Part shown: positions 1,675-57,355 of the stretch, piece by piece
Layout: every line of letters begins with the position of its first letter
Position numbering within the stretch: the first letter of the stretch is position 1
Source of the DNA: Chloroflexota bacterium
GTDB lineage: Bacteria; Chloroflexota; Dehalococcoidia; DSGV01
Direction of reading: 5' to 3'
DNA: 64,000 nucleotides
Assembly (NCBI GenBank): GCA_021787985.1
Contig: JAJYLG010000001.1
Location: 50,163-114,162, forward strand
Program-made: the position numbers and the translations under genes
The notes under the pieces: model-generated
What the model was told of the DNA's origin: nothing
The model's input: the letters and a program-made list of their open reading frames with translations, nothing else
Database searches by the model: none

Positions 1675-1892
1675 TTCAGAGCGCCTCCCGCAGCGATCAG
1701 TCGACCTTTGCTTGCGCACGCCCGCCCGGACGCGAACGGGGTCCGGCAGCCGCTCGGCCGACGCACGGGCAGGCCGATGACCGGCGGCTCCGTGTGCCCT
1801 GTCCGGCGCCCATCCACGAGCCTGGGCGAGTTCAACCGGTCGAGCCTCCTCATGGTGGCCTTGGCGATGGCATGTCCGTCCATGCTGGTCCC

Positions 1893-18715: not shown

Positions 18716-19342
18716 CTACGTTGCCAGCAGCCAGTCGACGACGCGCCGGTACTGCGCAAGCGGCACCTCGCCGACAACGCGAACGGCGCCGGCCGCGTCG
18801 GCGAGCAGCACCGTCGGCACCGCGGTGATGCCGCGTGTCTGAGCCTCGATGAAGTCGGCGAGCACCGCTGCCCGCTGTGTGCCCTCGTCGAGGTCGCGCT
18901 GGAAGCCCGCCACGTCCAGCCCCGCGCTGTCGGCCACCTGGATGAGCACGTCTCGCTGTGAGATGTCCCGGTTGAGCTCGAAGTAGGCGCGCAGCAGCGC
19001 CTCGTGGTAGCGAGCGAATGCTTCTGCACCCTGCCGCTCGGCGCACTTTCCGGCCTCCAGGGCCGGCAGGCTGTGTGAGGGCATGTCGCGGTCGTCGGGC
19101 CACGGGTGGAAGGTGACGCCATCCGGCGCGCCCATCTCTGCGGCCATTCGCCAGGACTCGCGCGTGTGGTCGTCGGGGCGACGGCCCTCGGCCTCAGGCT
19201 CAGGTCGCAGCGGGTAGGCTTTCCACGTGACGTTCACGCTTCCCGCGTACGTGTGCGTGATCTTGCGCAGACGAACCGCCGCGTTGTAGCACCACGGTCA
19301 GAGGTAATCCGAGTACGCGGTGACGATGACTGGCCCAGCCAT
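18716..19342 (-). CDS. DsbA/FrnE-like thiol-disulfide oxidoreductase with in-frame TGA (predicted selenocysteine, UPWC motif)
   Basis: Translation from ATG 19340-19342 reads MAGPVIVTAYSDYL-TGA(19298-19300)-PWCYNAAVRLRKI.... The TGA sits where DsbA/FrnE proteins have the first Cys of CPWC. The downstream ORF 18716..19237 is in the same frame and continues a DsbA fold (...GITAVPTVLL...). A GAGG RBS is present. A hairpin lies 14 nt after the TGA. Confidence 0.7.
19266..19283 (-). other. SECIS-like stem-loop downstream of the DsbA-like TGA
   Basis: The mRNA forms CGCGG-CGGUUCGU-CUGCG (5 bp stem including a G-U pair, loop with GGUU), starting 14 nt after the UGA. Confidence 0.35.
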
Positions 19343-23599: not shown

Positions 23600-24688
23600 C
23601 TACTCGCGCAAGTCCGCGACGCGCGCGACCGGCGTTCCGTCCCGTCGGCACAGCGCCCGCGTCACCGGACGCGTCTGGTCCCCGAACGTGGGTTGCCAGC
23701 TACTGTGCTTGCCGGCGCCTCCTACCACGATGACGGAGATCGCCTCCGGCGCATCTGCGATGGGCACCATCGTGTCATCTCGGTCTGGGAGCCCATTGCG
23801 GTGCGCCAGGAAGGCCCGGTACTCGGGGCCGAGGCGTCCCAACGGGAACCGTGCCTGCTCGAACAGGAACTGCTTCACCGTGCGCTTCGAGAACCCGTCC
23901 CGGGCAAGCGTGGCGGCGTGCTCTGGCCCCAGGCTCAGCAGCGGCCAGCCACGGCCGAGGAGATTGTTGCTTCCGGCCTCGCCCATGGCGCCCGCGATCA
24001 GGTGGAGGATGCCGATCCCGGTGGTGCTGTAATGGTCCTGAATGTTGTGCGGGCCCTCGCAGCCGAAGACGGTCACCGTGCTGGTGTCTGGCGCGAACCC
24101 GCGCTCGACGTGCAGCGGCTCCCAGGGATTTTGCTCTTCGTTTTCGGCCACGCAGTAGGCGATCTTTGCCGGGTTCCCTTGAGTGGCGCGATCGCCGCGA
24201 CCGGGCAGCCCTCCGCCGATGTTCATCAGGATGAGGCGCATGGCTCTGCCGATCGTTGCGTTCGCGCGAAAGCCCTGGCCGAACGCGTTGTAACCGGCAT
24301 TGATGCTGAGCTCGCGCGCGACTGGCCCGTTGACGACGACCAATGGCGCGACCGGGTGGGTTGTCGCCTGGATCGAGTCGATGTTGAACGCCGGGTCGGC
24401 GATCGCCTCCACTGCCGCGATCACGACCGGTAGGAATTCCGGCCGGCAGCCCGCCATGGCCGCGTTGATCGCGATCCTTTCCACCGTGGCCTCGCCCTGC
24501 CTCGGAGGCAGCACCGCGACGACCTCCTGGCGATCCCGGTCTGTCCAGCCGAGGAGCTCCTCGACGAGGTCCTCGGTGGGCGGCACGATCGGCAGGCCGT
24601 CGGTCCAGCCGCGTTCTTGGTAGAGCTCGTTGATCGCTCGATACGAGTCCTCGACGCGCAGCGTCCGGGCCGCCGCTCCGTCAGCCAC
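23600..24688 (-). CDS. Uncharacterised conserved protein, UGSC-associated partner A (paralog of 31116..32156)
   Basis: It shares N-terminal ...GWTDGLPIVPPTE... and a central ...GQGFRANATIGRAMRLILMNIGGGLPG... block with the paralog. The GTG start (second GTG, 24686-24688) lies 6 nt after a GGGAGGGA RBS and overlaps the UGSC-A stop by 8 nt. Confidence 0.65.
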   Translation of the reverse strand: MADGAAARTLRVEDSYRAINELYQERGWTDGLPIVPPTEDLVEELLGWTDRDRQEVVAVLPPRQGEATVERIAINAAMAGCRPEFLPVVIAAVEAIADPAFNIDSIQATTHPVAPLVVVNGPVARELSINAGYNAFGQGFRANATIGRAMRLILMNIGGGLPGRGDRATQGNPAKIAYCVAENEEQNPWEPLHVERGFAPDTSTVTVFGCEGPHNIQDHYSTTGIGILHLIAGAMGEAGSNNLLGRGWPLLSLGPEHAATLARDGFSKRTVKQFLFEQARFPLGRLGPEYRAFLAHRNGLPDRDDTMVPIADAPEAISVIVVGGAGKHSSWQPTFGDQTRPVTRALCRRDGTPVARVADLRE

Positions 24689-25256
24689 GCTCACTCCCTC
24701 CCTGAACGCCCGGAGCTGGCAGCGGCACGGCGGCGCTCACCGCTGTTGCCACCGCATCGGCGAGGTCCTTCGCCTTCGCCACCACCTCCTCCTCGGGGAT
24801 GCCCCCCAGCGGGTGCTGCGTGAGCGCGATCGGAAGCTCGGGCAGGCCGCGGTTCCGCGCCTCGAGCCGTGCGAGGGCCTGGAACTCGTCCGTACCGACC
24901 ACTACGGTAGGAACTCCCTGCTTCTCGAGCAGGATGGCGCCGTGGATACTCCACGACGTGCACGACCCTCAGTCCGCGCTGCCCACGATGACGAAGTCGC
25001 ACGTCATCAGGTCAGCCAGCACGTCCGGGGGAGGCGGTCCGGCGATGGGCTTCTCCCGCTTCAACACTTCGCGTATGCCGTGAAGCTCCTGCAGCCGCTT
25101 GGCGACCGACAGCATGAGGATGTCCGCGTTCGGCTTGCCGTTGTCCAGGATCCCGACGCGCGCGCCGGCGAGGCTGTCCAGTCGCGGCGCCAGCCTGACG
25201 GAGGCCACCTTGGGTTCGGCCGTCGGGTCATAAACTCTCGTCCAACGCTCGGTCAT
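24681..25256 (-). CDS. UGSC-motif small selenoprotein A (in-frame TGA at 24969-24971)
   Basis: Starts at ATG 25254-25256 with an AAGGGAG RBS. The ORFs 24969..25295 and 24681..24902 are in one frame and joined by a TGA: ...DFVIVGSAD-U-GSCTSWSIHGAILLEKQGVPTVVVGTDEF.... The paralog 32176..32718 has a TGA at the same aligned position. Confidence 0.7.
24939..24957 (-). other. SECIS-like stem-loop downstream of the UGSC-A TGA
   Basis: The mRNA forms GUCGUGG-AGUAU-CCACGGC (7 bp stem, 5-nt loop with GU), starting 11 nt after the UGA. Confidence 0.45.
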
Positions 25257-25366
25257 TGGCGTGCTCCCTTCGCCCTGCTGCTCTTCCTTCGCCACAGTCT
25301 ATGGGAACCCCCGTGCAGGAGGGCGAGACGCGCGCGAAGCTCGCCCTCCTGCATCAAGGTCGGCGG

Positions 25367-26848
25367 TTACTGGCCCTTCCAGGGGCAGGTGTCCGCGGCA
25401 CACGGATAGCCAGGAATGTTGCCGCGGATGCCGTGACCCTTGCTGGTCTCCATGTCGATCGGCGTCATCCCAGGGACCGGGACGAACCCCTTCGCGCTGG
25501 AATCCCAGTGCACCATCTGCACGGTCTCGATCGCCCAGTGGTCCTGGGCGCCGAACACGATTGGGCCGACGCAGAGGCTGCACTTCCAGCTTGACTGCAC
25601 GCTGAAGCCGGTTTGCATCGCATCGACCAGACCTTGCCGGGTCAGGTCCGGGCCGGCCAGCTCGAGGGAGTGGACCAGCATCTGCGTCCAGGCGATCCCG
25701 TCGAGGACGTAGGTGTTGAAGGCCAGCCCGTTCTGCTGCGCCCACGTCTTCGCCGCGGCCACCGCGGCCTCGTCCAGTTGATGGGTGGTGTAGATCCCGA
25801 GGTCAGCGGTCACGTTGTTGAAGTTCTGCGTTCCCGCGGCGACCGCGTTGCTGCTGCTCGCGCTCGACTGAGCGATCACCACCGGGCCGGTGTAGCCGGC
25901 CGTCTCGCGCAGGGCTTTGATGAACGGCACGATCGCGGTGCCCAGGAACGCCACGTAGTCCGGATGGGTGCTCGCGGCCTCCTGGGCTTGCGAGCTCAGG
26001 TCCGACGCGTTGGCGATGTTGTAGGTGATCGTCTTCGCGATCGTTGCGCTGGAGCTCGCCTGCGCCAATCCGACTTTGAAGCCCGCGAGCAGCGGCTGGC
26101 CGTAGGCGTCGTCCTGATAGACGACCGACACCTTCCCGCCGGGCTTCTGCTTGCCGACGTACGTGCCCAGCGCCAGCCCGTCTTCGAGCGCGGCCTGGCC
26201 GCCGCCGAACATCGTGGTGATCGTCGGCTCGGCCACCCAGGGCCCGTTCGCGAACAGGAAGATGTCGGGCACGCCCTTCGAGGCGTAGTACTTGTAGGTC
26301 GCCAGCTCACAGGCGACGCACAGGTTGCCGAACGTGGCGAACACTTTGTCCTGCTCCACGAGCTGCTTGGCGACGTCCGTGCCCCGCGCCGGAGTCCCGG
26401 CATTGTCCAGGTCGATCAGCTTGATCTTCCGGCCGAAGACGCCGCCGGCCTGGTTGACCGCGTCCACCACCTTCTGCATGGTCTGGGCGGTCGGGAGCCA
26501 CTGCGCCATGCCGCCGGTGTGGGGCGAGGAACGGCCGATTACGATGGTGTCCTTCGTTACGCCCGTGCGGTCGTCGCCTGCCGGCCGCGTCTTCGAGAGG
26601 GCAATGCAGTCGTTGATGGTGAACAGTCCGGCGACGCTCCGCGGGTCGCTTGCGATACCGGCCGGGCCGCATTTCCCGTTCCACGTGACGCCCGACGACG
26701 CCGTCGCCGTGTTGGAGGCGGCAGTGCCGGTGCTCCCCGGCTGAGTCGCCTTGGACGACTTGCTGCTGCACGCGGCCAGCGCCATGGCGACGACGGCCAC
26801 CAGCACCAACACGGTCAGCCGGACTCTCGACCTGGTGTAATCTCTCAT
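25367..26848 (-). CDS. ABC transporter substrate-binding lipoprotein (Liv-type periplasmic binding protein family)
   Basis: It has a signal peptide with a lipobox (...VLVLVAVVAMALAACSSKSS) and a type I PBP fold. Confidence 0.8.
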   Translation of the reverse strand: MRDYTRSRVRLTVLVLVAVVAMALAACSSKSSKATQPGSTGTAASNTATASSGVTWNGKCGPAGIASDPRSVAGLFTINDCIALSKTRPAGDDRTGVTKDTIVIGRSSPHTGGMAQWLPTAQTMQKVVDAVNQAGGVFGRKIKLIDLDNAGTPARGTDVAKQLVEQDKVFATFGNLCVACELATYKYYASKGVPDIFLFANGPWVAEPTITTMFGGGQAALEDGLALGTYVGKQKPGGKVSVVYQDDAYGQPLLAGFKVGLAQASSSATIAKTITYNIANASDLSSQAQEAASTHPDYVAFLGTAIVPFIKALRETAGYTGPVVIAQSSASSSNAVAAGTQNFNNVTADLGIYTTHQLDEAAVAAAKTWAQQNGLAFNTYVLDGIAWTQMLVHSLELAGPDLTRQGLVDAMQTGFSVQSSWKCSLCVGPIVFGAQDHWAIETVQMVHWDSSAKGFVPVPGMTPIDMETSKGHGIRGNIPGYPCAADTCPWKGQ

Positions 26849-26939
26849 CCTTTCCTCCCTGCACGAACTCCGAAGCGATGGTCATCGCTAATGACTTCAC
26901 GCGCTTCGCTACGGTGCCTGTTTGTCTGTTCGCACTCCT

Positions 26940-28442
26940 TCATCCGCTGCTTACCCGTTCTCTTTCCCGTGAGACCCCCCGCGTCTGTTCGTCCGCTCCG
27001 ACTCCTCCAGGAACGATCCGCCCGTGCAGCCACTCGCCTACCTCGGCCCAGGAAAGTGCATCGAGGTCGCGAGTGAAGCCGGCGAGACCGCCCGGCATCG
27101 CCAGCACCACGAGCAAGACCGCCGCGCCCGCGAAGGCGGGCTGCAGCGCCACGACGTTGAGAAACGTCGAGGTGATGAAGCGCAGCCCCGCGAGCACGCC
27201 GACGGCGATGACCGCGGCCACCACCACAGCTCCGGTCACGAGACCGGCACGGGTCACGGGGCTGGCAGGCCTCGCCATGAAAGAGCGCGTAGTACGCGGC
27301 AGCACCGACCTCCGCGAGAACCAGAGCAAGACGAGGACCGTGATCAGCGCCACGACCAGCACATCCGCCCAGTTTCGCGAGCCGCTCTGAAACGCGCTGG
27401 AGAAGGCCTGTACGCCTTGTTGGTAGATGTAGACGAGAAAGAAGCCGCCCAGGATGGACCCGAGGATCGACGCCCTGCCGCCGATCACCATCGCCAGCAG
27501 GAACTCGATCGACTGGGTAAGCGTGAACCCGTCCGGCGCCACGCTGCGGTTGTTCAACAGGAACCACAGCCCGCCGGCCACGCCGGCGAGCGCCGCGCTG
27601 ACCACGAAGGCCGAGATCTTGACCAGCGCGATGTCGACGCCCATCGCCGTTGCGGCGTTCTCGTCGTCGCGCGTGGCGGTCAGAGCGCGCCCCGCCGCCG
27701 AACGGACGAGATTGCTGACCAGCCAGATCGCCACCAGCAGCACCAGCAGCCCAACGAAGTAGTGCCACCGCTCCGAGGTCAGCCAGTGCCACGAAACCGG
27801 CGGGCCGAATGCGCGGCTGAACTCGCTCAGCCCGTTGAAGCTGCCGGTGTACTTCTCGAGCTCGTGCACCTGCAGGACCTCCGGGAAGGCGACCGTGATC
27901 GCCAGCGTGACCAGGCCGAGGTAGTGGCCACGCAAGCGGAGGGCGGGCACCCCGATCAGCAGGCCGACAGCGGCGGTAGCGGCCGCGCCGATGGCGACCG
28001 CCAGCACGATGCTGAGGTGCCCCTGTCCCGTGGCGATCGCCGCCGCGTACGCCCCGATCCCCAGCAGCGCCGCGTGACCGATCGAGATCTGGCCGGTGTA
28101 GCCCGTCACCAGGTTGAGGCTGAGGACGATGAGCGACACGACCAGCGCGCGGTCCATCAGGCTGACCGCGAAGGTGCTCTTGGCAACTCCAGGTAGGACC
28201 ACCGCGAACAGCGCCGCGCCGATCGCCCATCCGAGACGTGCGGAGGAAACCCCGCGGCCCGCCTGCGCTCCGCGCCGAGTCCGACGCCACGAGGCGAGCA
28301 TCACCGCGGCGCCGACGGCGCCGACCGCAAGCCCCGCGCGCGGGCCGGCCACGTAGACCGCGAACCACAGCCCCACGATGAGCGCCAGGAGCTCGACCGG
28401 CGTCGGTATGACGGACGCCGTGGCCCAGGCGGCCCGTTTCAT
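26940..28442 (-). CDS. ABC permease, LivM-like
   Basis: It is polytopic, with a LivM-type core ...GYTGQISIGHAALLGIGAYAAAIATG.... The stop overlaps the upstream LivH-like gene start by 4 nt. Confidence 0.8.
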   Translation of the reverse strand: MKRAAWATASVIPTPVELLALIVGLWFAVYVAGPRAGLAVGAVGAAVMLASWRRTRRGAQAGRGVSSARLGWAIGAALFAVVLPGVAKSTFAVSLMDRALVVSLIVLSLNLVTGYTGQISIGHAALLGIGAYAAAIATGQGHLSIVLAVAIGAAATAAVGLLIGVPALRLRGHYLGLVTLAITVAFPEVLQVHELEKYTGSFNGLSEFSRAFGPPVSWHWLTSERWHYFVGLLVLLVAIWLVSNLVRSAAGRALTATRDDENAATAMGVDIALVKISAFVVSAALAGVAGGLWFLLNNRSVAPDGFTLTQSIEFLLAMVIGGRASILGSILGGFFLVYIYQQGVQAFSSAFQSGSRNWADVLVVALITVLVLLWFSRRSVLPRTTRSFMARPASPVTRAGLVTGAVVVAAVIAVGVLAGLRFITSTFLNVVALQPAFAGAAVLLVVLAMPGGLAGFTRDLDALSWAEVGEWLHGRIVPGGVGADEQTRGVSRERERVSSG

Positions 28443-29359
28443 AGCTTGACCACCCGTTTCCGGCCGAATAGTCCCTGGGGCCGGACGATAAGCAGCACCA
28501 CGATGACCACCAGCGCGATCAGGTCACGGTACTGCTGCGGCTGGGCGATGTTGAACGGGAGGTGCAGCCATCGCACCACGTTGCCGAGGTAGACTCCGGT
28601 CAAGCTCTGCAGCACGCCGAGAAGAACGCCACCGACCAGTGTGCCGACCATGCTGTCCAGCCCGCCCACGACCGCCGCGGCGAACGCGAACACCAGGACG
28701 ACGTCCATCATGTTGGGCGTCAGGCTCAGCAACTGCGCCAGAAGCATCCCGGCGACGCCCGCGCACGCGATCCCCAGACCCCAGGCGAGCATCATCATGC
28801 GGTCCGTTGGAACGCCGGCCAGCTCGGCGGCCGTGCGGTTTGCCGCCGTGGCTCGCAGCACCAGACCAAGGCGGGTGTGCCGGAAGAGAAGGTACAGGGC
28901 GAGGACGAGCGCCAGCGAAACGCCGAAGAGGTACAGCGACGCTCGCCCGATGTGCACACCATGCAGGTCGATCGGCGGCCCCGCGAACGGCTGCGGAAAC
29001 GGATGAGGCTGACCACCGTAGATGCCAACGGTCAGCCCGTAGAACACGAACAGCAGTCCCAGCGTGACGATCAGCGGATTGAGCCCGGTGCGCTCCTTCT
29101 CCGGGACCATTCGGATCACCAGGCGCTCCACCAGCGCACCCACCACGAAGGCGACGATCGTGCCGAGCAGGAAGCCGGCCGGGTAGGGCAGCCGGAGCAA
29201 CAACGACCAGGCGATGAACGTCACGAACGTGCCCATCGCTGCCTGTCCGAAGTTGATGATCTCCGTCGCCTGGGCGATGACGACCAGTCCAAGCCCCACG
29301 ACCGCGTAGACGCTGCCTGTCAGTGCACCCGTGATCGTCTGCTGGAGGAGCTGGGTCAT
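28439..29359 (-). CDS. ABC permease, LivH-like
   Basis: Contains MTQLLQQTITGALTGSVYAVVGLGLVVI... and ...INFGQAAMGTFVTFIA.... Four-nt overlaps on both sides. Confidence 0.85.
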   Translation of the reverse strand: MTQLLQQTITGALTGSVYAVVGLGLVVIAQATEIINFGQAAMGTFVTFIAWSLLLRLPYPAGFLLGTIVAFVVGALVERLVIRMVPEKERTGLNPLIVTLGLLFVFYGLTVGIYGGQPHPFPQPFAGPPIDLHGVHIGRASLYLFGVSLALVLALYLLFRHTRLGLVLRATAANRTAAELAGVPTDRMMMLAWGLGIACAGVAGMLLAQLLSLTPNMMDVVLVFAFAAAVVGGLDSMVGTLVGGVLLGVLQSLTGVYLGNVVRWLHLPFNIAQPQQYRDLIALVVIVVLLIVRPQGLFGRKRVVKL

Positions 29360-30168
29360 GTGGAAGCGGCCCCCTGCCCGAGATAGCTTCGTCGTACTTG
29401 TTCGCTGCCGCGCAGCTCCGCCGCCGAGCCGACGGACATGACCGTCCCGGTCTCGATGACGTATCCCAAGTCGGCGATACTCAGGGCGATCCCCACGTTC
29501 GGCTCCGCCATGAGCACCGCGACGCCTTGCTCGCGGTTGATGCGCGTGATGATCCGATAGATGTCCCGGACCACAAGCGGCGCCAGGCCCAGCGATGGCT
29601 CGTCCAGCAGCAGCAGCCGAGGACTGGCCATCAGCGCGCGAGCGATCACCAGCATCTGCTGTTCGCCGCCCGACAGCGTGGCCGCGCGCTGCCTGCTGCG
29701 CTCTTTCAGGATCGGGAAATACTCGAACGCCCGCTCCAGCGCGGTGGCGATCGCGGACCGGCCTCGCGTGGAGTACGCGCCGACCATGAGGTTCTCTTCA
29801 ACCGTTAAGTCCGCGAACAGCGGTCGTCGCTCGGGCACATGGACGAGACCGCGGTGCACCAGTGAGCTCGGCCGCTGTCCCACGATCGACTCGTCCTCGA
29901 ATTCGATCGACCCGGCGTCTGGTCGTGCCAGGCCCGAGATGGCGCGCAGCAGCGTGGACTTGCCGGCCCCGTTTGCGCCCAGCAGGGCCACCACGCCATG
30001 GCGCTTCACTTCGAGGTTGACGCCGTGCAGGACCCGGAGCTTGCCGTACGAGACCCACAGGTCGCGCACCCGCAGCATGGGATGCGCGCCATCTGCCGAC
30101 GCGGTCGCCCGGTCCTCCCCGCGTGAGCAAACACTCGTACCGGCTTCTCCGCCGGCCTTCTCACTCAT
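29356..30168 (-). CDS. ABC ATP-binding protein, LivF-like
   Basis: Has GANGAGKST and LSGGEQQML. The ATG at 30166-30168 overlaps the upstream stop (ATGA). A shorter start at 30078 (MLRVRDLWVSYG) is possible. The ORF-track start at 30297 is an artefact. Confidence 0.75.
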   Translation of the reverse strand: MSEKAGGEAGTSVCSRGEDRATASADGAHPMLRVRDLWVSYGKLRVLHGVNLEVKRHGVVALLGANGAGKSTLLRAISGLARPDAGSIEFEDESIVGQRPSSLVHRGLVHVPERRPLFADLTVEENLMVGAYSTRGRSAIATALERAFEYFPILKERSRQRAATLSGGEQQMLVIARALMASPRLLLLDEPSLGLAPLVVRDIYRIITRINREQGVAVLMAEPNVGIALSIADLGYVIETGTVMSVGSAAELRGSEQVRRSYLGQGAAST

Positions 30169-30965
30169 CAGCCGCCCGATACCGCCGTTTCTGCCACCGA
30201 GTCGAGCTCGCCGAGGTATGCCAGCACCACCGCGGGATCGCGCTGGACCGCGTCCGGCGGGCCATCCGCGATCTTCTGCCCGAAGTTGAGCACGCATACC
30301 CTGCTCGAGATGCTCATGACGAGACCCATGTGATGTTCGACGAGCACGATGGTGACGCCGGCCTCGCGCCTCACGCCGAGGATGACGTCCGCCAGCTCCG
30401 CCACCTCCTCGTGGTTCAAGCCGGCTGCCGGCTCATCGAGCAGCAGCAGCTTGGGAGCCGACATGAGCGCGCGCGCCAGCTCGACGCGCTTGCCCGTCTG
30501 CACGGAAACCTCGCTTGCCTTGCGATAGGCGACAGCGGCCAGCCCGAGCTGCTCGATCAGCTCGCCCGCCCGACGGCGAAGCGCCTGCTCGGATGCCCGC
30601 AGCCGCGCCCACGGAACCATCGAGACGAAGGGGTTGGTCACGGCTCCGGAATGGCCGCCGACGAGGATGTTCTCCAGCACCGACATCGACGGGAAGAGCG
30701 CCACATTCTGGATGGTGCGGGCAATGCCCAGGGCCGCAACCTGCTTCGGCCGAACCGGCCGCAGATCCTTCCCGTCGAACTGTATGGCTCCCGCATCCCA
30801 GTCGTAGAACCGCGAGACGCAGTTGAGCAGCGTGGTCTTGCCGGCCCCGTTCGGGCCGACCACCGCGCAGATCTCTCCGGCCGCGACGTCCAGACTCACG
30901 TCCTGGAGCGCCTGCACACCGCCGAAGCTCAGCGACACGCCACGCACCGAGAGCACCGAGGTCAT
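30168..30965 (-). CDS. ABC ATP-binding protein, LivG-like
   Basis: Contains MTSVLSVRGVSLSFGGVQAL... then GPNGAGKTT... then LLLLDEPAAGLN. Confidence 0.85.
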   Translation of the reverse strand: MTSVLSVRGVSLSFGGVQALQDVSLDVAAGEICAVVGPNGAGKTTLLNCVSRFYDWDAGAIQFDGKDLRPVRPKQVAALGIARTIQNVALFPSMSVLENILVGGHSGAVTNPFVSMVPWARLRASEQALRRRAGELIEQLGLAAVAYRKASEVSVQTGKRVELARALMSAPKLLLLDEPAAGLNHEEVAELADVILGVRREAGVTIVLVEHHMGLVMSISSRVCVLNFGQKIADGPPDAVQRDPAVVLAYLGELDSVAETAVSGG

Positions 30966-32175: not shown

Positions 32176-32718
32176 TTACGCTTCCAGCGGGCGCGGCGCC
32201 GCCACTTTGGCGACCACGTCGTCGATCGCGTTCCTGATCACGCCGCGCGAGCTCTCGGTGTCGCCGAACTCGGTTACCTCGGTTGGCGGAAGCACCACCA
32301 TCGGGGAGCTGCTCGCCCCCTTACCCTTGAACGTGACCGTGGCGAGGTTGACGAACCGCTCGGTCACCAGTACCACGGACGGGATGCCCCGTCGAATCAG
32401 CTCGATCGTGTCGTGGACACTCCACGCGGTGCAGGACCCTCAGTTGGCGAGCCCCACGATGGCGATGTCGGCGTTCTCCGTCGCCTGTTGGAGCACGGCC
32501 TCCGACGCGGCGGCGGCGATGGGCACCTCGAACTCGAGGACCTGCGCGACGCCGAACTCATTGACCAGCGTGCCGCGCATCTCGTCGACCAGCTTGTTCA
32601 TGCTCTGCCAGCCGTTGTTGAGAAAGACGACGGACTTGCCCCGCAGGTCTTGCGGGGCGAACTCCGCGGTCACTCGGGTCGCACGAAACGCACCAGCCGT
32701 CGGTTCTACGATCCGCAT
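32176..32718 (-). CDS. UGSC-motif small selenoprotein B (in-frame TGA at ~32440-32442)
   Basis: Starts at ATG 32716-32718 with a GGGAGAAACAC RBS. ORFs 32440..32718 and 32176..32376 are in the same frame: ...DIAIVGLAN-U-GSCTAWSVHDTIELIRRGIPSVVLVTERF.... This is the same architecture as UGSC-A. Confidence 0.7.
32411..32425 (-). other. SECIS-like stem-loop downstream of the UGSC-B TGA
   Basis: The mRNA forms CGUGG-AGUGU-CCACG, 14 nt after the UGA. It is near-identical in shape to the UGSC-A hairpin (loop AGUGU versus AGUAU). Confidence 0.4.
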
Positions 32719-33065: not shown

Positions 33066-33141
<76 letters not shown>

Positions 33142-39200: not shown

Positions 39201-39590
39201 CTCCAGCAGGTCGGCAGTGTAGAGCGCCACCGCGCTGGCCAGGTCGTCGACGGTGGAGCCCGCTTGCTCGAACTGGGATACATCGAGCCAGTAGTCCGCG
39301 GCAGGGTTCCAACGGACCGTCTTGGCGTCGCTCAGCAGCCAGGGGTGGCGCGGCGGGGCGGCGGGCAGGGCGCGTTGCAGGTGGTGGAGATGCCGGCGCA
39401 GGTTGGCGCGGGCATTCGCTTCCGATTCGTCGGGCCAGAGAGCGAACGCGAGGGTATCCCGCCCGATGGGTTGCGAGGCGTGGAGCAGCAGATACGCCCA
39501 GAGCGGCAGCGTCTTGGGCGGAGCCGCCAGCCGAAACGGCTGCCCATCGGCGAGGAAGCGTGGCTGGCCGAAGAGGTGTATGCGCAGCAT
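36072..39590 (-). CDS. SARP/AfsR-family regulator: OmpR-type winged helix plus BTAD, NB-ARC-type ATPase and C-terminal TPR region (~1170 aa)
   Basis: From ATG 39588-39590 the protein reads MLRIHLFGQPRFLADGQPFRLAAPPKTLPLWAYLLLHASQPIGRDTLAFALWPDE..., then a Walker A VLVGGEAGIGKSRLAAEL, then a long helical repeat region. Confidence 0.8.
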   Translation of the reverse strand: MLRIHLFGQPRFLADGQPFRLAAPPKTLPLWAYLLLHASQPIGRDTLAFALWPDESEANARANLRRHLHHLQRALPAAPPRHPWLLSDAKTVRWNPAADYWLDVSQFEQAGSTVDDLASAVALYTADLLENVYEDWLFAERERLRNLYVAHLDRLISESWTHRDHRRAIAYCQQLLAKDPLREDVAQRLIALRYEPGDRAGAVLEYRRFVRRLQEELAALPMPETTALYEAVVRGQQIPGVQPARETAAANEEEKRSAPLPFVGREAEPEQLRACWTRAARGRGGVVLVGGEAGIGKSRLAAELALVVRAEAARVLAGTARPAEPMPYHALVEALRSALPLLAALDLDPLWFAAAGPLLPELRARAGKPVALPPLDPEREQARLFEALARVLEGLAQPRPLLVILEDLHWGGAAMVTLLEVLARRAPRHPLLVLVTYREEETGRAHPLRDLRRRLQRENLITHLALERLPVSAVERMVERAPGLSTRAGSERMPLPELARRLHSASEGNPLFLNELVHELLESGAAALPELGPRPSSLSGGLRATVADRLARLSPTARALAEVAAVAGTAFDVELAREVSGWEEDRVLDALGELHDHHLVREVGGGSRFDYAFTHHLIQAAVYAGIPAPARRRRHRRVARVMEELYSQRLDDLTAELALHFDRGGDPDRAAHYSLRAARHALALHAGEEALAHLSRCLELTSAPRPRCDALLLRERVHSRRGDREAQRADLAELGGLARSLGDGDLLCELLHRQVLFHRALGERQAEAALIEALHAAAAERPRWQVEALQAEAVHQLLLNRYDAAWVALQRVLGLRQARDDAGGQAECCCLLADVAVQQGRFEEAEDLIRTALAFRGWQMNQSLMVQTLGSAVGALFAQQRFDSAGALGQQMLDLCRTIGDREGEAGAHASLGMVAARLFRIQEARQHYERAASLYHALGKRQGEAAVLVNAGMLAGGLGQYTESVDSFHKAEELFRSLDDLRGQAACALNAGMAAFFQGDHPAAEAAARRGLELARAIRNPVLEGTALGNLGAAERELGRLAQAVEHMEAGLAIRRRLDRPADLGADLCDLTVAYLRAGNLAKARACADELLDLLGCTADAMIHPQYILWAGAQTYRALGEGRRAHELFDEAHATLQAKAAAIPDAESRVTFLRLPFNAELVAARESGGWR

Positions 39591-39899: not shown

Positions 39900-39976
39900 G
39901 GGCGGTTAGCTCAGTTGGTTAGAGCGCCACGTTGACATCGTGGAGGTCACTGGTTCGAGTCCAGTATCGCCCACCA
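39900..39976 (+). tRNA. tRNA-Val (anticodon GAC)
   Basis: Acceptor GGGCGGT/ATCGCCC with a G-U pair, D-arm GCTC-AGTTGGTTA-GAGC, anticodon loop TTGACAT, T-arm ACTGG-TTCGAGT-CCAGT, and an encoded CCA. Confidence 0.9.
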
Positions 39977-44885: not shown

Positions 44886-45857
44886 ATGAGAGGACGACTC
44901 CAGGCGGCGCTGGTCGACCGCGACGCGCTTCGGTCTCAGATCCGGGACAAGTACACGGTGGTGGCCCTCGAACCGCAGACGGGCTTCCATTTCCACACGG
45001 GCCGGCCGCTCGCCAGGATGCTCGGCTACGACGAGGCGGACCTGGACCGGCTGCCGTCCGCCGTGGCGGAGTCCTTCGCCGGCACGGGCAACCCGTTCGC
45101 CTTCGGACGGCTGGCGGAAGGCGAGGTGGTCGTCGACATCGGGTGCGGCGCCGGGTTCGACACCTTGTTGGCGGCTGGGCAGGTCGGGCCACGGGGCCGA
45201 GTCATTGCCGTGGACATGACCCCCGCCATGCTCGACAAGGCCGCCGCGGGCGCCCTGGTCCTCAACCTCCGCAACGTCGAGGTACGCCACGGCGTTGCGG
45301 AGGAGCTGCCGGTGCCCAGTCAATCGGCCGACGTTGTCATCAGCAACGGCGTCATGAATCTGTGCCCGGACAAGCTCGCGGCCATGCGCGAGGTCCGCCG
45401 TGTGCTGCGGCCAGGCGGGCGTTTCCAGATCGGCGACCTGGTCGTGCACCAGGAGGTGCCACAGGACGCGAAGGACGACATCGACCTGTGGTCCGGCTGA
45501 ATCGCCGGGGCTCTGCTGGAAGCAGAGTGGGACTGGGTCCTCAAGCACGCCGGGTTCATCGACGTGCGCTGGGGCCGCCAGGTGGATGTCTTCGCGGGCT
45601 CCAAGCACGAGTCCGACGCTCAGGAATTCGGTGCGCGTGGCGTCACGTTCGCTGGTAGGAGACCCATGCGGGCGGCCGACCCCGCGCCCGTGTGGGCGGA
45701 GCGCGACTCTGATGGCGGCCGCCGGTGCGCGGTCCCGGTCGCGTCGGCTGGCCAGCAGCCAGGCCCTTCGTGTGGTAAGATGCAGTCACGGGGACGAAAG
45801 GGCTCGACAGGGGCCGGCGTGCTCGGGTTGCAGGCCGAGGTGCCATCAACCTCGTAA
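44886..45857 (+). CDS. ArsM-like SAM-dependent methyltransferase with in-frame TGA (45498-45500) at the conserved catalytic Cys position. Predicted selenoprotein; 3' end uncertain.
   Basis: Contains a GCGAG SAM motif (VVDIGCGAGFDTLL) and ...VVISNGVMNLCPDK.... Around the TGA it reads DIDLWSG-TGA-IAGALLEAEWDWVLKHAGFIDVRW..., and typical ArsM sequence continues in frame after it. The nominal stop at 45855-45857 overlaps the tmRNA 5' end by ~68 nt. Confidence 0.55.
45511..45527 (+). other. SECIS-like stem-loop 10 nt downstream of the ArsM-like TGA
   Basis: CUCUGC-UGGAA-GCAGAG: a 6-bp stem with a 5-nt loop. Confidence 0.4.
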
Positions 45858-46143
45858 ATCAGGTGGCAAACAAGTAACTGGCGAACCACAACTCGCCCTC
45901 GCTGCCTAAGAGCTAGGCAGCCGTCCGCCACCGCCTCGTCCCGGTGGGTGGTGAACGGGCGACGCAATGCCGGGATGCCGCGCAGCGCTCGCTGACGACG
46001 CGCGCGAAAGATCAGTCAGCCCGCCCCGAAGGGACGCCGGCGGTAGCGGCCCGAGGGGCTCAAACAAAGTGCCGCAGAAGCCTGTGGATGCCCGGGGCGT
46101 ACGCTCACTGGACCGGGGGTTCAATTCCCCCGCGTCTCCACCA
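45790..46143 (+). ncRNA. ssrA: tmRNA (ssrA), tag peptide GEPQLALAA
   Basis: The 5' GGGGACG pairs with the 3' CGUCUCC-A-CCA. The T-arm is GGGGG-UUCAAUU-CCCCC. The tag ORF GGC GAA CCA CAA CTC GCC CTC GCT GCC TAA runs 45880-45909. It is followed by the hairpin CTGCCTAAGAGCTAGGCAG. Confidence 0.85.
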
Positions 46144-46310
46144 TCTCGATCAGACCGCCCGTCCGTCAGGACGGGCGTTCGTTTCCCGCGCGCCGCCTGC
46201 GCTCCCGCCGCCAGCGGCCGGGCAGCCCGCCTGATCTGCTCCCAAAGCCGTCCCGCGTTCGCCTGACAGGCGGGCGTGCCGCCACGTGACTGCCGGGCTA
46301 TGCTGCCGCC

Positions 46311-47198
46311 ATGGCACGGCGAAGACTCCACGTGCTCTGCGTGCACGGCATCGGCGGCGCACGGCCCGGCTTCTCCGATGGCCTGCGCGTGCGCGTCCGC
46401 CGACTCCTGGCGCGCGACCCGCGCGCTCGCGAGTGGGGGGCGCGACATCCGGATGTGGACTTGCTCGACTGGAGCGAGTACGTCTGGAGCGCGATCGGAG
46501 AGGAGCGAGAGCTTGGGCTGCTCCAAGCGCTCTATCCGGATCTGGCTGAGGACCGCCCGCCGCGACTGCTGCTCTGGGAGCTCATCGAGGGGATCCTGGG
46601 TGTCGGCCGCATGGGTGAGACGCGGCGGTCTCTCATCAAGCAGCTCGGCGACATCCTCGTGTATCTCTCTCCGACCGACGGGGAGCGCATCCGCGCCGGT
46701 CTGGCCAGCGCGATCACCGCGATCCGCGACCGCTGTGACCGCGAGGAGCCGGGTGTGGCGAGTTATGTCACGCTCATCGCCTACTCGCTCGGCGCCGTGA
46801 TCGCGTTCGACGTCGCCTACCGCTTCGCGCAGACCGGTGAGATGCGTGAGCACAGCGAGGGCCTCGAGCTCGGCAGCCTGGTCACGCTCGGCGCGCCGAT
46901 CGCCCTTTTCTCGCTCCTGCGCGGGCCCGCGTACGACCACTACCGTGACCGCCCCGTGCGGACGCGACCGGGCGGCCGCTGGGTCAACTGCCTCGACCCG
47001 CAGGACCTCGTCGCCTGGCCGATCCGGCCCCTTTACCCCGAGCTGCCCGGGCTCGAGGATCGTCCCGTTCGCACCGGCAACCTGGTGTCGGCCCACTCCG
47101 GCTACTGGCATAGCCGGGATGTGGCGCGCATCGTCGCGGGCTGCCTCAGCGCCGATCCGGGTATGAGCGCGGGAGCGGCCCCAGAGAGCGCCACATGA
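46311..47198 (+). CDS. Alpha/beta-hydrolase-like protein (DUF-type, lipase-like AYSLG nucleophile elbow)
   Basis: Reads MARRRLHVLCVHGIGG... then ...VTLIAYSLGAVIAFD.... The longer minus-strand ORF over it is antisense noise. Confidence 0.55.
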   Translation: MARRRLHVLCVHGIGGARPGFSDGLRVRVRRLLARDPRAREWGARHPDVDLLDWSEYVWSAIGEERELGLLQALYPDLAEDRPPRLLLWELIEGILGVGRMGETRRSLIKQLGDILVYLSPTDGERIRAGLASAITAIRDRCDREEPGVASYVTLIAYSLGAVIAFDVAYRFAQTGEMREHSEGLELGSLVTLGAPIALFSLLRGPAYDHYRDRPVRTRPGGRWVNCLDPQDLVAWPIRPLYPELPGLEDRPVRTGNLVSAHSGYWHSRDVARIVAGCLSADPGMSAGAAPESAT

Positions 47199-48680: not shown

Positions 48681-50470
48681 CGGCGGCGGAACTCACGCTC
48701 CAGCGCGGTCGCCGGCACATGGACGACGGTCGGTCGCCCGTGCGGGCAGGTGCGCGGCTGCCGGCACGACTCCAGCGCCAGCACGATCTCGCGCATCTCG
48801 TCAAGCGAGAGCGACATGCCCGCCCGCACTGATGCGTGACAGGCGGCGGTCATCAGCGAGCGGTCGCGCCTGCGTGGCAGGTCGGGCTCCTCGGCCGCCA
48901 GCGCCCCCAGCTCGCTGAGGAGCTGCGACAGGTCTCGCTTGACCAGCGGCGCGGGCACCGCCCGCACCAACCAGGCGCCGCCGTCGAGGGGGTCGGCCTG
49001 TACGCCGACAGTCTCCAGCACACGCCTATCGGCAACCAGCGCGGCCGACGCGCCGGGCGAGAGCTGGCAAACCTGCGGCACCAGTAACGGCTGCAGATCC
49101 TCTCCCTCCGGCCTGGCGCAGAAGCGCTCGTACAGCACCCGCTCGTGGGCGGCGTGCTGGTCGATGAGGAACATCCCTTCCGGGCCCTCGGCGACGATGT
49201 AGGTGGCGCCAACCTGGCCGACGATGCGCAGCGGCGGCAGGGCCGGACCGGCGACTGGCGCGTCGCCGGCGCCGTTGGCGGACCGTGCCGGCGGCGGCCC
49301 CGCGGAGGCGGGGGGCGCGGCTGCCTCCCCCGGTGACCGGGCGTCCGCCGGAAGCTGGGGGACCGCCGGCTCTTCGAGCGGCAGTCGCGGCGCCCACGGA
49401 GGAGAAACGAGCCGCAGCGGCGCCGCATCGTCGCCCTCGAAGGTCTGCGCTCCGCCCGAGAGAAGGGCGCCGGCCGCCGGCACCGGGGCGGATCTGCTGA
49501 TGGCGGAGTGCGCTGCCGCCGTCAGGGCGGACAGCACGACGCGCTCGTCGCGGAAGCGCACGTCCGTCTTCGCGGGGTGCACGTTGACGTCCACTTCCTC
49601 GGGTGCGAGGCGCACGTCGAGCACGGCCAGCGGGTGCTGCCCCGTGGGTAGCCCGTCCTGGTATGCGCGCTCGATCGCGAAGAGTGGCGCGCGGCTGCTG
49701 ACCCAGCGGCCGTTGACAAAGACGGTCATGGCGCCGCGGGAGCCGCGCCAGGTGCCCGGCGGCGACACCAGCCCGGTCACGCGCACGCCGGGGGCTTCGA
49801 ACTCCACCGGCAGCAGGTGGTCGGCGGCCGAGCCGTAGAGCGCGCGACAGACGTCGCGCAGCTCGCCGCTGCCGTCCGTGCGCAACAGCAGGCGGCCATC
49901 GGACGTCAGCGTGAAGCGCACGTCCGGGCGGGACAGCGCCAGCCGGGTGACCACGCCCGCGACCGCGGCCGCCTCGGCCCCGGCCGAGCGCAGGAACTTG
50001 CGGCGCGCCGGCTGCGCGTGGAAGAGGCGCGTCATTCCGATATCGGTGCCGTGTGGCTTGCCCTCGCGCCCTCGGCCGAGCAGCTCGCCGCCAGCTATCC
50101 GGATCCACGCCGCTGCGAGCTGCTCGGCTGGCCGGGAGGAGCAGCGCACCTCGGCGGCGGCGGCGATGGCGGCGAGCGCCTCGCCGCGGAAGCCGAGCGT
50201 GGCGACGCGCGCCAGGTCCTCGATCGTGGATAATTTGCTGGTCGCGTGGCGGGCGAACGCGAGCTCCAGCTCGCCCTCGGGGATGCCGCAGCCGTCATCG
50301 ACGACGCGCAATCGTTCCGCACCGCCGCGCTGCATCTCGACGGTGACGCGCCGAGCCCCCGCGTCGAGCGAGTTCTCGACGAGCTCTTTCGCCACCGAAG
50401 CAGGCCGCTCGACGACTTCCCCGGCGGCGATCTGGCGGGAGACCTCGGGCGGCAGGCGCTGAATGGGCAT
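48677..50470 (-). CDS. mutL: DNA mismatch repair protein MutL
   Basis: From ATG 50468-50470 it reads MPIQRLPPEVSRQIAAGEVVERPASVAKELVENSLDAG..., the GHKL ATPase N-terminus. The stop overlaps the convergent upstream gene by 4 nt. Confidence 0.9.
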   Translation of the reverse strand: MPIQRLPPEVSRQIAAGEVVERPASVAKELVENSLDAGARRVTVEMQRGGAERLRVVDDGCGIPEGELELAFARHATSKLSTIEDLARVATLGFRGEALAAIAAAAEVRCSSRPAEQLAAAWIRIAGGELLGRGREGKPHGTDIGMTRLFHAQPARRKFLRSAGAEAAAVAGVVTRLALSRPDVRFTLTSDGRLLLRTDGSGELRDVCRALYGSAADHLLPVEFEAPGVRVTGLVSPPGTWRGSRGAMTVFVNGRWVSSRAPLFAIERAYQDGLPTGQHPLAVLDVRLAPEEVDVNVHPAKTDVRFRDERVVLSALTAAAHSAISRSAPVPAAGALLSGGAQTFEGDDAAPLRLVSPPWAPRLPLEEPAVPQLPADARSPGEAAAPPASAGPPPARSANGAGDAPVAGPALPPLRIVGQVGATYIVAEGPEGMFLIDQHAAHERVLYERFCARPEGEDLQPLLVPQVCQLSPGASAALVADRRVLETVGVQADPLDGGAWLVRAVPAPLVKRDLSQLLSELGALAAEEPDLPRRRDRSLMTAACHASVRAGMSLSLDEMREIVLALESCRQPRTCPHGRPTVVHVPATALEREFRRR

Positions 50471-54836: not shown

Positions 54837-57355
54837 CTCGGACCGCCCTCCGCCCGGGCACGCGTCCGCAGCTCGTACAGCCGGGTGATCGCCTCCAGCG
54901 GAGTGATCGCGTCGACGTCGAGCTCGCGCAGCTCGCGCACCAGCGGGGAATCCGGCTCGAACAGCCGCATCTGTACCACGGGCTGGCGGCGGCGCGGCCC
55001 ACGTCCCTGCTCCTCCAGCACGCGCAGCACCTCCCGGGCGCGCTCTACCACCGGCCGTGGCAAGCCCGCCAGCTCCGCGACGTGGATACCGTAAGAGCGG
55101 TCAGCCGCGCCGGGGATGACCTGGCGCAGGAAGACGACGGCGCCGTCCTGCTCCGCCACGGCCATCGTCAGATTGGTGACCCGCGGAAGCTCGTCCGCCA
55201 GCCCGGCCAGCTCGTGATAGTGGGTGGCGAAGAGCGTACGCGCGGCGTGGCGCGAATGATTGTGCAGGTACTCCACCACGGCGCGCGCGATGCTGATGCC
55301 GTCGTAGGTGCTGGTCCCGCGTCCCACCTCGTCGAGGACGACCAACGACCGCGGGGTGGCGTCGCGCAGGATGGCGGCCGTCTCCAGCATCTCCACCATG
55401 AAGGTGCTCGCCCCGCCGACGAGGTCGTCCTGCGCGCCCACCCGGGTGAAGATGCGGTCGGCCACGCCGATAAGCGCCTCGGCGGCCGGCACGAAGCTGC
55501 CCGTCTGCGCCATCAGCACGATCAGGGCGCACTGCCGCAGGTAGGTGCTCTTGCCGGCCATATTCGGCCCGGTGACGACGGCGATCTGCGGTCCCTCGAT
55601 GTCGAGCAGACAGTCGTTTGGCACGAACGTTCCCTCGGGCAGCGCGCGTTCGACCAGCGGGTGGCGGCCGGCGACGATCCGCAGCCGGGCCGCATCGTCG
55701 ACCGCGGGTCGCCGGTAGTCGTAGCGCGCGGCGGCCTCGGCGAGGGCGGACAACACGTCGGCGATGGCGACCGACGTCGCCAGGGCGCGCAACCGTTCCT
55801 GCTGCCGCGCCACGCGACCGGCGAGCTCGCGCACGATCGCCTCGGCGAGCTCCTCGGATCGCGCCTGCGCCCCGAGAATCCGCTCCTCGATCTCCTTCAG
55901 CTCGGGCGTGACGTAGCGCTCCGCGTTCACCAGCGTCTGGCGGCGTGTCCAGGTCTCGGGCACGAGCGCCCGATTGGCGTGCGAGACCTCCAGGTAGTAG
56001 CCGAACACGCGGTTGTAGCCCAGCCGCAGCGAACGGATGCCGCTTTCGCTGCGGGCGCGGGCCTCGATCTCGGCCAGCACGGAGCGGGAATCTGCCGCCA
56101 GCCGCCGGACCTCGTCCAGCGCCGCCGAGTGTCCCGGGCGCACCACCTCGACCGCGTCCCCGCCTTTGGGCGGGTCGTCCACCAATGCGGAGTCGAGCGC
56201 GGCCAGCAGGTCGTCGATGGGCGGTGGCGGCTCCCACGCCGGCAGCCGGTCGGCGTGGGACGCCAAGGCCGTGAGGGCGTCCGCGGCCTGGTGGAGCGCG
56301 AGCCGCAGCGTCACGAGCTCGCGCGGCTGGGCGAGGCCGGCCGAGACACGCGTCGCGAGCCGCCCCAAGTCGCCCATGCGGGCCAGTCCCGCTCGCAGGG
56401 CTGAGCGCAGCGACCCATCCGTCGTCAGCGAACCGACGCTGTCGAGACGCCGGTTGATCGCTGGCGGTTCCGCGAGCGGCCGCGTCAGCCACTCGCGCAG
56501 CAGCCGGCCGCCCATCGGGGTCTGCGTCAGGTCCAGCACATCGAACAGGCTCGTCATCCCGCCCCGCGGCGCCCCCGGAGTGGGCAGCACGGCCAGATGG
56601 CGCAGCGCGGTGGCCGAGACGCGGCAGGTGCCGGCCATGCCCAGCGGCCGCGGCGGGCCGAGCGCGTTCGCTACCTGCGGGAGGCTCGCTGCGAGGTAGT
56701 CGCGCAGGGCCGCCAGGGCGCGACCGGCGACCTCGGGCAGCGCCTCGCCCTCCGCATCGCGCGCCTCTGGAAGCGCGCTGAAACGCGCGGCGGCCCAGGA
56801 CGTGATCCGCGTGCCCCGTGGCAGCGCCGGCGGCTCGGCGCCTTGCGCGACGAGCACCTCGGCCGGCTGCAGGCGGGCGATCTCGGCGGCGGCCTGCGCC
56901 TCTCCCAGCGCGCCGGCGAGGCACTCCCCCGTGGACACATCGGCCGCGGCGAGCCCGATGGTGTCCCCGTCGCGAGCGACCGCCAGCAGGAAGTTGTTCG
57001 CCTCGCTCGGCAGCAGGCGCTCCTCGACTAGCGTCCCCGCCGAAACGACACGGGTGACGCGGCGCTCCATCAGCCCGGCGGCGGCGTTCTCATCGACCTG
57101 CTCCACGATGGCGACGCGATGGCCGGCCGCGACCAGTCGCGCCAGGTGGCCCTCGGCGGCGTGGAACGGGATGCCGGCCATGGGCACGCGACCATCGCGC
57201 CCGAAGTTGCGCGTTGTGAGCGTGATCTGGAGGATCTCGGCACACACGCGGGCGTCGTCGTCGAACGTCTCGTAGAAATCGCCGAGGCGGAAGAAGACGA
57301 TGACGTCTGGATACTGGCGCTTGATCGCCAGGTACTGGCGGCGAATGGGTGTCAC
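54833..57355 (-). CDS. mutS: DNA mismatch repair protein MutS
   Basis: Reads MTPIRRQYLAIKRQYPDVIVFFRLGDFYETFDDDA... and has a Walker A GPNMAGKST. Confidence 0.9.
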   Translation of the reverse strand: MTPIRRQYLAIKRQYPDVIVFFRLGDFYETFDDDARVCAEILQITLTTRNFGRDGRVPMAGIPFHAAEGHLARLVAAGHRVAIVEQVDENAAAGLMERRVTRVVSAGTLVEERLLPSEANNFLLAVARDGDTIGLAAADVSTGECLAGALGEAQAAAEIARLQPAEVLVAQGAEPPALPRGTRITSWAAARFSALPEARDAEGEALPEVAGRALAALRDYLAASLPQVANALGPPRPLGMAGTCRVSATALRHLAVLPTPGAPRGGMTSLFDVLDLTQTPMGGRLLREWLTRPLAEPPAINRRLDSVGSLTTDGSLRSALRAGLARMGDLGRLATRVSAGLAQPRELVTLRLALHQAADALTALASHADRLPAWEPPPPIDDLLAALDSALVDDPPKGGDAVEVVRPGHSAALDEVRRLAADSRSVLAEIEARARSESGIRSLRLGYNRVFGYYLEVSHANRALVPETWTRRQTLVNAERYVTPELKEIEERILGAQARSEELAEAIVRELAGRVARQQERLRALATSVAIADVLSALAEAAARYDYRRPAVDDAARLRIVAGRHPLVERALPEGTFVPNDCLLDIEGPQIAVVTGPNMAGKSTYLRQCALIVLMAQTGSFVPAAEALIGVADRIFTRVGAQDDLVGGASTFMVEMLETAAILRDATPRSLVVLDEVGRGTSTYDGISIARAVVEYLHNHSRHAARTLFATHYHELAGLADELPRVTNLTMAVAEQDGAVVFLRQVIPGAADRSYGIHVAELAGLPRPVVERAREVLRVLEEQGRGPRRRQPVVQMRLFEPDSPLVRELRELDVDAITPLEAITRLYELRTRARAEGGPS

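Follow-up and report, generated by a model that had tools for sequence, protein, structure and literature searches.

Does the DNA at positions 45790-46143 of a GC-rich Chloroflexota contig encode a transfer-messenger RNA (tmRNA), and, if it does, does the 3' end of that gene border an integrated element? The question concerns a stretch of 64,000 nucleotides (nt) from a Chloroflexota bacterium (assembly GCA_021787985.1, contig JAJYLG010000001.1), called the window here. A first-pass annotation, made from the sequence alone, had placed a tmRNA gene (ssrA) in it under overlapping protein open reading frames (ORFs) and had pointed to its 3' end as a possible integration site. The ssrA gene is near-universal among bacteria, and its product is a ribosome-rescue RNA. 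We conclude, with a probability of about 0.92, that 45790-46143 on the forward strand is the ssrA gene of the host, encoding a standard one-piece tmRNA, and that it lies amid ordinary chromosomal genes and not at the border of an integrated element.

Identification of the ssrA gene

Two independent detectors return identical coordinates for the gene. ARAGORN places a tmRNA at 45790-46143 (+) and reads its tag peptide, GEPQLALAA*, from gene positions 91-120, which correspond to 45880-45909. Infernal aligns the same interval of the same strand to the Rfam model RF00023 over model positions 1-374 of 374, untruncated, with a score of 120.5 bits and an E value of 1.6e-46. This is 2.5 times the gathering score of the model (47 bits), and the strength of the match is far past chance. 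The model for permuted tmRNAs, RF04321, stays below threshold (17.2 bits against 47, E 0.97), and the modules follow one another in the normal 5'-to-3' order. The GC content of the tmRNA is 68%.

These are exactly the boundaries that the first-pass annotation had given, and both searches proposed with it, ARAGORN and RF00023, bear it out; the failure of the covariance model, which it had named as evidence that would overturn its reading, was not seen. Its description of a tRNA-like 3' end that pairs with an upstream GGGGACG, and of an internal tag ORF ending in ALAA-TAA, likewise agrees with what was found: the two acceptor strands, the T-arm, the CCA and the tag frame are all in place (Table 1). 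The ssrA gene described here is a known kind of feature, correctly recognized but ordinary, and its architecture is not unusual. A copy of ssrA that standard annotation tools find at once is of little weight by itself; the practical value lies in an annotation correction and in one further tmRNA from a poorly sampled, deep-branching lineage of Chloroflexota.

Structural anatomy of the tmRNA

The acceptor stem consists of 7 bp, and its third pair, read from the sequence in register with the cmscan alignment, is G45792:U46137. In tRNA-Ala and in tmRNA, a G3:U (G3:U70) pair is the identity element recognized by alanyl-tRNA synthetase (AlaRS), and by its position G45792:U46137 is this alanine-identity pair. 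The first pseudoknot (PK1) is a clean H-type pseudoknot, in which the conserved CCUCGUAAAU motif is matched in the Rfam alignment. The resume codon GGC lies 12 nt 3' of PK1, and the resume codon of the Rfam consensus aligns with the same triplet. From there, the tag is read as GGC GAA CCA CAA CUC GCC CUC GCU GCC UAA, and its stop codon sits at the top of the helix 5 hairpin. Another tag frame, ANHNSPSLPKS*, was considered and rejected, as it is without the ALAA end and conflicts with the register given by ARAGORN and Rfam. For the three further pseudoknots, PK2-PK4, the main hairpins align to RF00023, and second stems of 5-6 bp between the loop and the downstream sequence can be drawn.

Compared with the members of the RF00023 family, for which E. 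coli SsrA is the type, the molecule is alike from end to end. It shares the G3:U70 pair, the encoded CCA, a PK1 ahead of the resume codon, a short tag ending in ALAA, a stop codon in helix 5, and, as drawn from the single sequence, three further putative pseudoknots. Where the commoner resume codon is GCN (Ala), the codon here is GGC (Gly); glycine resume codons are also known in Deinococcus and Dehalococcoides. The short tag of 9 encoded residues and the GC content represent ordinary variation within the family. The two-piece (permuted) tmRNAs of alpha- and beta-proteobacteria and cyanobacteria, described by RF04321 and related models, serve an identical function with the tRNA-like and tag modules found here; the present gene differs from them in its normal order and in the sub-threshold score given above. 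A literature search for the tag GEPQLALAA found no paper.

Table 1. Positions of the features discussed in the text, numbered from the first base of the window
Feature	Position	Strand	Basis or remark
ssrA, standard one-piece tmRNA with encoded CCA, 354 nt	45790-46143	+	ARAGORN; Rfam RF00023, end to end
Acceptor stem, 5' strand GGGGACG	45790-45796	+	Sequence reading; closing helix bracketed in the cmscan alignment
Acceptor stem, 3' strand CGUCUCC (46133-46139), discriminator A and CCA (ACCA, 46140-46143)	46133-46143	+	cmscan alignment; sequence reading
T-arm of the tRNA-like domain, GGGGG/UUCAAUU/CCCCC	46115-46131	+	Rfam alignment; also in the minimum free energy (MFE) and centroid folds
PK1, stem 1: CGAGG (45836-45840) with CCUCG (45850-45854), 5 bp	45836-45867 (PK1)	+	Complementarity search
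PK1, stem 2: GCCAUC (45842-45847) with GGUGGC (45862-45867), 6 bp		+	Complementarity search; bracketed in the Rfam alignment
Tag frame: resume codon GGC (45880-45882), GEPQLALAA, stop UAA (45907-45909)	45880-45909	+	ARAGORN; translation; Rfam
Helix 5 hairpin, 8 bp, GCUGCCUA/UAGGCAGC	45901-45921	+	MFE and centroid folds; Rfam alignment
PK2: hairpin 45922-45936 with 45946-45961; loop CCCGG (45939-45943) with CCGGG (45970-45974)	45922-45974	+	Hairpin from the Rfam alignment; second stem picked by eye; single sequence only
PK3: hairpin CGCGC (45979-45983) with GCGCG (46000-46004); loop GCUGAC (45991-45996) with GUCAGC (46015-46020)	45979-46020	+	Hairpin from the Rfam alignment; second stem from complementarity search; single sequence only
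PK4: hairpin GCCCC (46023-46027) with GGGGC (46055-46059); loop GCGGUA (46040-46045) with UGCCGC (46070-46075)	46023-46075	+	As for PK3
Candidate extended -10 element TGGTAAGAT, 8 nt 5' of the mature end	45773-45781	+	Putative; read by eye
Intrinsic-terminator-like hairpin (46156-46177) followed by UUCGUUU	46156-46184	+	Terminator scan
Mechanical ORF	45400-45909	+	GC by codon position 0.56/0.78/0.69
Mechanical ORF	45620-45967	-	GC by codon position 0.70/0.63/0.72
Mechanical ORF, 401 amino acids (aa)	45906-47111	-	GC by codon position 0.82/0.57/0.74
Gene of a 295-aa protein	46311-47198	+	Adjoins ssrA downstream
ArsM-like S-adenosylmethionine (SAM) methyltransferase gene: ATG 44886, in-frame TGA 45498-45500, frame to TAA 45855-45857	44886-45857	+	Candidate selenoprotein gene
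UGSC-family (PF24696) gene, TGA 24969-24971, ...GSAD*GSCTSW...	24681-25295	-	Candidate selenoprotein gene
UGSC-family (PF24696) gene, TGA 32440-32442, ...GLAN*GSCTAW...	32176-32718	-	Candidate selenoprotein gene
DsbA-like thioredoxin-fold gene, TGA 19298-19300, MAGPVIVTAYSDYL*PWCYNA	18716-19342	-	Candidate selenoprotein gene

Proposed mode of action

The steps by which this tmRNA would act are those established for its family. Its 5' and 3' ends would pair to form the tRNA-like domain, in which the G3:U pair would let AlaRS load alanine on the CCA end. Together with SmpB and EF-Tu, the charged tmRNA would move into the vacant A site of a ribosome that has stalled on the stop-less end of an mRNA, and the nascent chain would be moved onto its alanine. 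The ribosome would then swap its template to the GGC codon just past PK1, adding (A)GEPQLALAA, and termination at the UAA in the helix 5 hairpin would set it free. The C-terminal ALAA would mark the tagged protein for proteases such as ClpXP.

Overlying reading frames and transcription signals

Three ORFs produced by mechanical translation overlie ssrA (Table 1), and they are spurious, as the first-pass annotation had held. None of them has a Pfam match at E<=0.1, and their GC content by codon position is of a non-coding type. The real genes of the neighborhood have values of about 0.75/0.45-0.52/0.85-0.89, that is, low GC at the second and high GC at the third codon position. Long spurious ORFs arise because a sequence of 69% GC has few stop codons.

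The idea that one of the overlying ORFs is nevertheless a real gene, and that the likeness to a tmRNA is secondary, could draw on the length of these frames, as ORFs of 115-401 aa span the ssrA region. It could also draw on the upstream methyltransferase gene, the frame of which stays open to the TAA at 45855-45857, 68 nt inside the tmRNA gene. Set against this are the missing family matches and coding-type GC pattern of the ORFs, the E value of the tmRNA match, and the homologues of the methyltransferase that carry cysteine at its in-frame TGA, which stop about 65 codons ahead of that TAA. The probability of a real protein gene here is practically negligible.

Signals on both sides of ssrA were also found. 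The candidate -10 element, TGGTAAGAT, forms an A/T-rich patch within a genome of 69% GC, and the terminator-like hairpin begins 13 nt 3' of the CCA. The hairpin has 9 bp (8 of the 9 G-C) and a loop of 4 nt, and its fold has an energy of -24.5 kcal/mol (z -2.3). With a candidate -10 upstream and a predicted intrinsic terminator downstream, ssrA looks like a stand-alone transcription unit.

The 3' end of ssrA as a possible integration site

The ssrA gene is a known integration hot-spot, in the class Dehalococcoidia as well as elsewhere. An alternative to the reading given above is that the intact ssrA is the attL of a genomic island or prophage and that the genes next to it, which encode a hydrolase-like (295-aa) and an acetate-CoA ligase-like protein, are its cargo, as in Dehalococcoides. 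That comparison is relevant to a Dehalococcoidia-like host, as Dehalococcoides is where ssrA-specific islands are known; the class-level neighborhood is the same, as the best matches of the threonyl-tRNA synthetase (ThrRS) of the window are metagenome-assembled genomes of Dehalococcoidia or Chloroflexota. In Dehalococcoides mccartyi, the islands are bordered by a repeat of 20 bp that copies the 3' end of ssrA, and the reverse strand carries a serine recombinase gene, dsiB, that overlaps attL (McMurdie et al. 2011, PMC3146451). The last 11 nt of the Dehalococcoides repeat CCCTCCCCCGTCTCCACCA (the reverse complement of a primer in PMC3146451), namely CGTCTCCACCA, are the same in the ssrA gene described here.

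The features of those islands are a 20-bp downstream repeat, a dsiB/dsiA module on the reverse strand by attL, and rdhA cargo; none of them is seen at this locus. The relevant 3'-end sequence of ssrA is ATTCCCCCGCGTCTCCACCA, and the direct repeat (attR) was looked for in the window and in a further 8.7 kb beyond it on the source contig, ENA ERZ27233565 k141_1339019 (126,864 bp, in which base 50300 is base 1 of the window). With up to 3 mismatches allowed, the 29-mer and the 19-mer of the 3' end each have a single match in the window, and looser searches there (29-mer with up to 6 mismatches, 20-mer with up to 4) find ssrA itself only. At up to 2 mismatches, the 15-mer has only two extra matches, at 55384 inside mutS and at 39382 on the opposite strand, both attributable to chance. 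Exact 11- and 12-mers taken from the final 80 nt of ssrA are rarer elsewhere in the window than those of random 97-nt segments. The 8.7 kb past the end of the window contain no match to the ssrA 3' end, and neither the exact 3' end nor the degenerate pattern has a match in the IMG/VR viral contigs (0 matches). Hence, a direct repeat of the last 15-29 nt is absent from the window and from the 8.7 kb beyond; the first-pass annotation had suggested looking downstream for one of the last 15-25 nt.

The genes around the site point in the same direction. No tyrosine or serine recombinase or integrase was found among the scanned large ORFs of the window or among the genes called beyond it. The 401-aa reverse-strand ORF at 45906-47111 does overlie the 3' end of ssrA, as the recombinase gene does in Dehalococcoides, but it is not a recombinase: Pfam has no match for it, and its GC by codon position is not of a coding type. 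The GC content stays between 0.66 and 0.76 throughout the window, flat and without a step at ssrA. Downstream of ssrA follow genes for the 295-aa protein, an ADP-forming acetate-CoA ligase alpha-like protein, MutL, a metallo-beta-lactamase-fold protein, an acyl-CoA dehydrogenase, a subtilase, MutS, NuoF-like and NuoE-like proteins, an amine oxidase, an LPG-synthase-type membrane protein, and an NHL/PMT protein; past the end of the window come DUF2298, MptA_B, FtsY, and SMC. Core genes are thus among them (mutL, mutS, ftsY, smc), with mutL starting 2.5 kb and mutS 8.7 kb 3' of ssrA.

The 295-aa protein, encoded right 3' of ssrA, speaks for an island. It is nearly an orphan, belonging to a tiny family with only 10 homologues besides itself (29-43% identity), and in other genomes these are found in other places, after pyrG or beside a DinB-type polymerase. 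It has no Pfam or NCBIfam match. The family has invariant HG, AHSLG, D, and H residues that resemble the catalytic set of alpha/beta hydrolases. A profile search against the PDB gave only weak matches to DDHD, phospholipase A1, and lipase entries (E 0.06-0.8). The AlphaFold model is poor, with a predicted local distance difference test (pLDDT) score of 57, and with this query Foldseek returned nothing at E<=0.001, the top of its list consisting mostly of alpha/beta hydrolases. The AHSLG, D, and H residues that are conserved make an alpha/beta hydrolase plausible, though not proven. Of the two labels given to the downstream genes in the first-pass annotation, the acetate-CoA ligase-like one stands (481 aa, ADP-forming, alpha-like), while the alpha/beta hydrolase one is plausible (HG...AHSLG...D...H) but has no significant family match.

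Taken with the missing repeat over 26.6 kb downstream, the missing recombinase, the flat GC, the nearby mutL and mutS, and the absence of the 3' end from IMG/VR, an island inserted at the 3' end of ssrA is not supported. The suggestion of integration at this site did not hold up, and the island alternative, which we regard as highly improbable, is already largely refuted.

Weighing the assignment

A number of observations weigh against a functional ssrA in an ordinary chromosomal setting. The pseudoknots and helices are supported by one sequence and the family model, and cmscan marks several pairs of helices 2 and 5 and of PK2-PK4 as non-standard. The plain MFE fold of the tmRNA is not clearly better than those of shuffled sequences (z -1.82); this is expected because the RNA is pseudoknotted and its sequence GC-rich (68%), and the value is not positive evidence. 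No SmpB domain was found among the scanned ORFs of the 64-kb window, so smpB does not appear there. A promoter scan with a two-hexamer consensus reported no promoter at ssrA. Lastly, the search for attR covered 26.6 of the 30.4 kb of contig that lie 3' of ssrA, and that contig only.

The non-standard pairs and the lack of a nearby smpB, together with a view of the genome limited to 64 kb and 8.7 kb, would also suit a decayed or non-functional copy, either a pseudogene or a duplicated fragment, with the working ssrA elsewhere in the genome. Against such a copy stand a full-length, untruncated RF00023 match at 2.5 times the gathering score, and an intact acceptor stem, G3:U pair, T-arm, CCA, PK1, tag frame open to ALAA-UAA, and terminator. 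In bacteria, moreover, smpB is frequently unlinked to ssrA. A decayed copy is therefore extremely unlikely in our view, and the host's own ssrA is the reading that we keep.

Host placement and the search for related loci

The host is a deep-branching, high-GC (69%) Dehalococcoidia-like member of Chloroflexota, known from metagenome assembly. This placement rests on the labels of the best matches of ThrRS and of the methyltransferase. The best ThrRS matches are 64-70% identical, and those with a label belong to Dehalococcoidia or Chloroflexota; the best methyltransferase matches, where labelled, do likewise. Clustering about 15 billion sequences at 90% identity leaves five proteins of the window, ThrRS among them, as singletons.

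No related tmRNA was found with the exact 27-mer of the ssrA 3' end in a collection of genome contigs, and a scan of genome contigs with the acetate-CoA ligase-like protein yielded no relative. In metagenome contigs, a degenerate pattern of the 3' end has 3 matches, two of which are chance matches within coding sequence. The third is at positions 1846-1872 (-) of a low-GC contig (L010, Ga0137403_10000093) and reads GATGGTTCAATTCCATCCACGTCTCCACCA, a tRNA-like 3' end with T-arm, acceptor strand, and CCA. At that site, both ARAGORN and Rfam report no tRNA or tmRNA, and the fragment could be the leftover of an attachment site or an unusual tmRNA- or tRNA-like piece.

Among the nine longest loci with homologues of the 295-aa protein, the methyltransferase, or ThrRS, ARAGORN found no tmRNA, and thus the gene order around ssrA appears to be specific to the host genome. 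The nearest genome found reaches about 70% identity in ThrRS, and ssrA is missing from all the related loci that were retrieved. The only shared order seen is that of tRNA-Lys(ctt), tRNA-Val(gac), and thrS in GCA_029262675.1 (L017). There, the two tRNA genes are about 230 bp apart, just ahead of thrS. In the window, tRNA-Lys(ctt) at 33066-33141 (-) and tRNA-Val(gac) at 39900-39976 (+) are separated by 6.7 kb, with the gene of a BTAD/AAA/TPR regulator of 1185 aa and several ORFs that match no Pfam family in between. The gap could represent an insertion or simple divergence. A further observation on the window is that its first 17 kb are rich in paralogous acyl-CoA dehydrogenases and family III CoA-transferases.

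Candidate selenoprotein genes in the neighborhood

Four genes in the 64 kb have an in-frame TGA at the cysteine positions of known selenoprotein families (Table 1). The one next to ssrA is the ArsM-like methyltransferase, in which DLWSG*IAGAL at the TGA corresponds to LWSNCIAGAL in the 260-261-aa homologues of cysteine type, giving a UxxG motif. Coding-type GC persists beyond this TGA. At least 15 clusters of homologues end at exactly 204 aa. The in-frame TGA recurs in two independent contigs, L012 and L022, and conserved coding sequence follows it in both. Over 31 nt, which begin with the TGA and close with the GCUCUGCUGGAAGCAGAG hairpin (45498-45528), the three sequences differ only at 45506 and 45509, both of which precede the hairpin, and third positions further on vary. 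Such conservation is SECIS-like, in the manner expected of a selenocysteine insertion sequence (SECIS) element. Among the listed selenoprotein families is an arsenite methyltransferase with a UxxG motif (PMC13188914), on which NCBIfam models also bear. The methyltransferase is accordingly treated as a candidate selenoprotein of a known family, on the strength of these sequence features.

Its 3' end runs toward the tmRNA gene. Where the homologues of cysteine type end (...GVKPG*), the frame has no stop codon; the segment 45666-45857 stays open for about 65 codons more, via the putative promoter region of ssrA, to the UAA that is conserved in PK1. A terminator scan predicted none between the methyltransferase gene and ssrA. 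The GC composition of this tail is non-coding, which suggests that it is unconstrained. In L012, the only other homologue of selenocysteine type whose contig covers the C-terminus, the canonical stop is also gone and the frame goes on for about 37 codons. It may be imagined that the methyltransferase gene is co-transcribed with ssrA, the tmRNA being cut from the 3' end of the mRNA, or that its stop-less transcripts are built-in substrates of trans-translation; either arrangement seems very unlikely to us.

The remaining three genes lie further upstream. In both UGSC-family genes, GSC stands right after the TGA, the coding signal goes on beyond it, and the Pfam match is cut at 91-92 of 172 positions. 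The two genes flank a branched-chain-type ATP-binding cassette (ABC) transporter operon (25367-30965), and both are candidate selenoprotein genes. In the DsbA-like gene, U-P-W-C (U-x-x-C) would replace the CxxC redox motif. 'DsbA-like form 1' is a known selenoprotein family (PMC13188914), and the gene is a candidate member of it. The genes selA, selB, and selD and a tRNA-Sec were not seen in the 64-kb window. The four candidate selenoprotein genes would mark the host as a user of selenocysteine, and they make the neighborhood of ssrA more interesting than the tmRNA itself.

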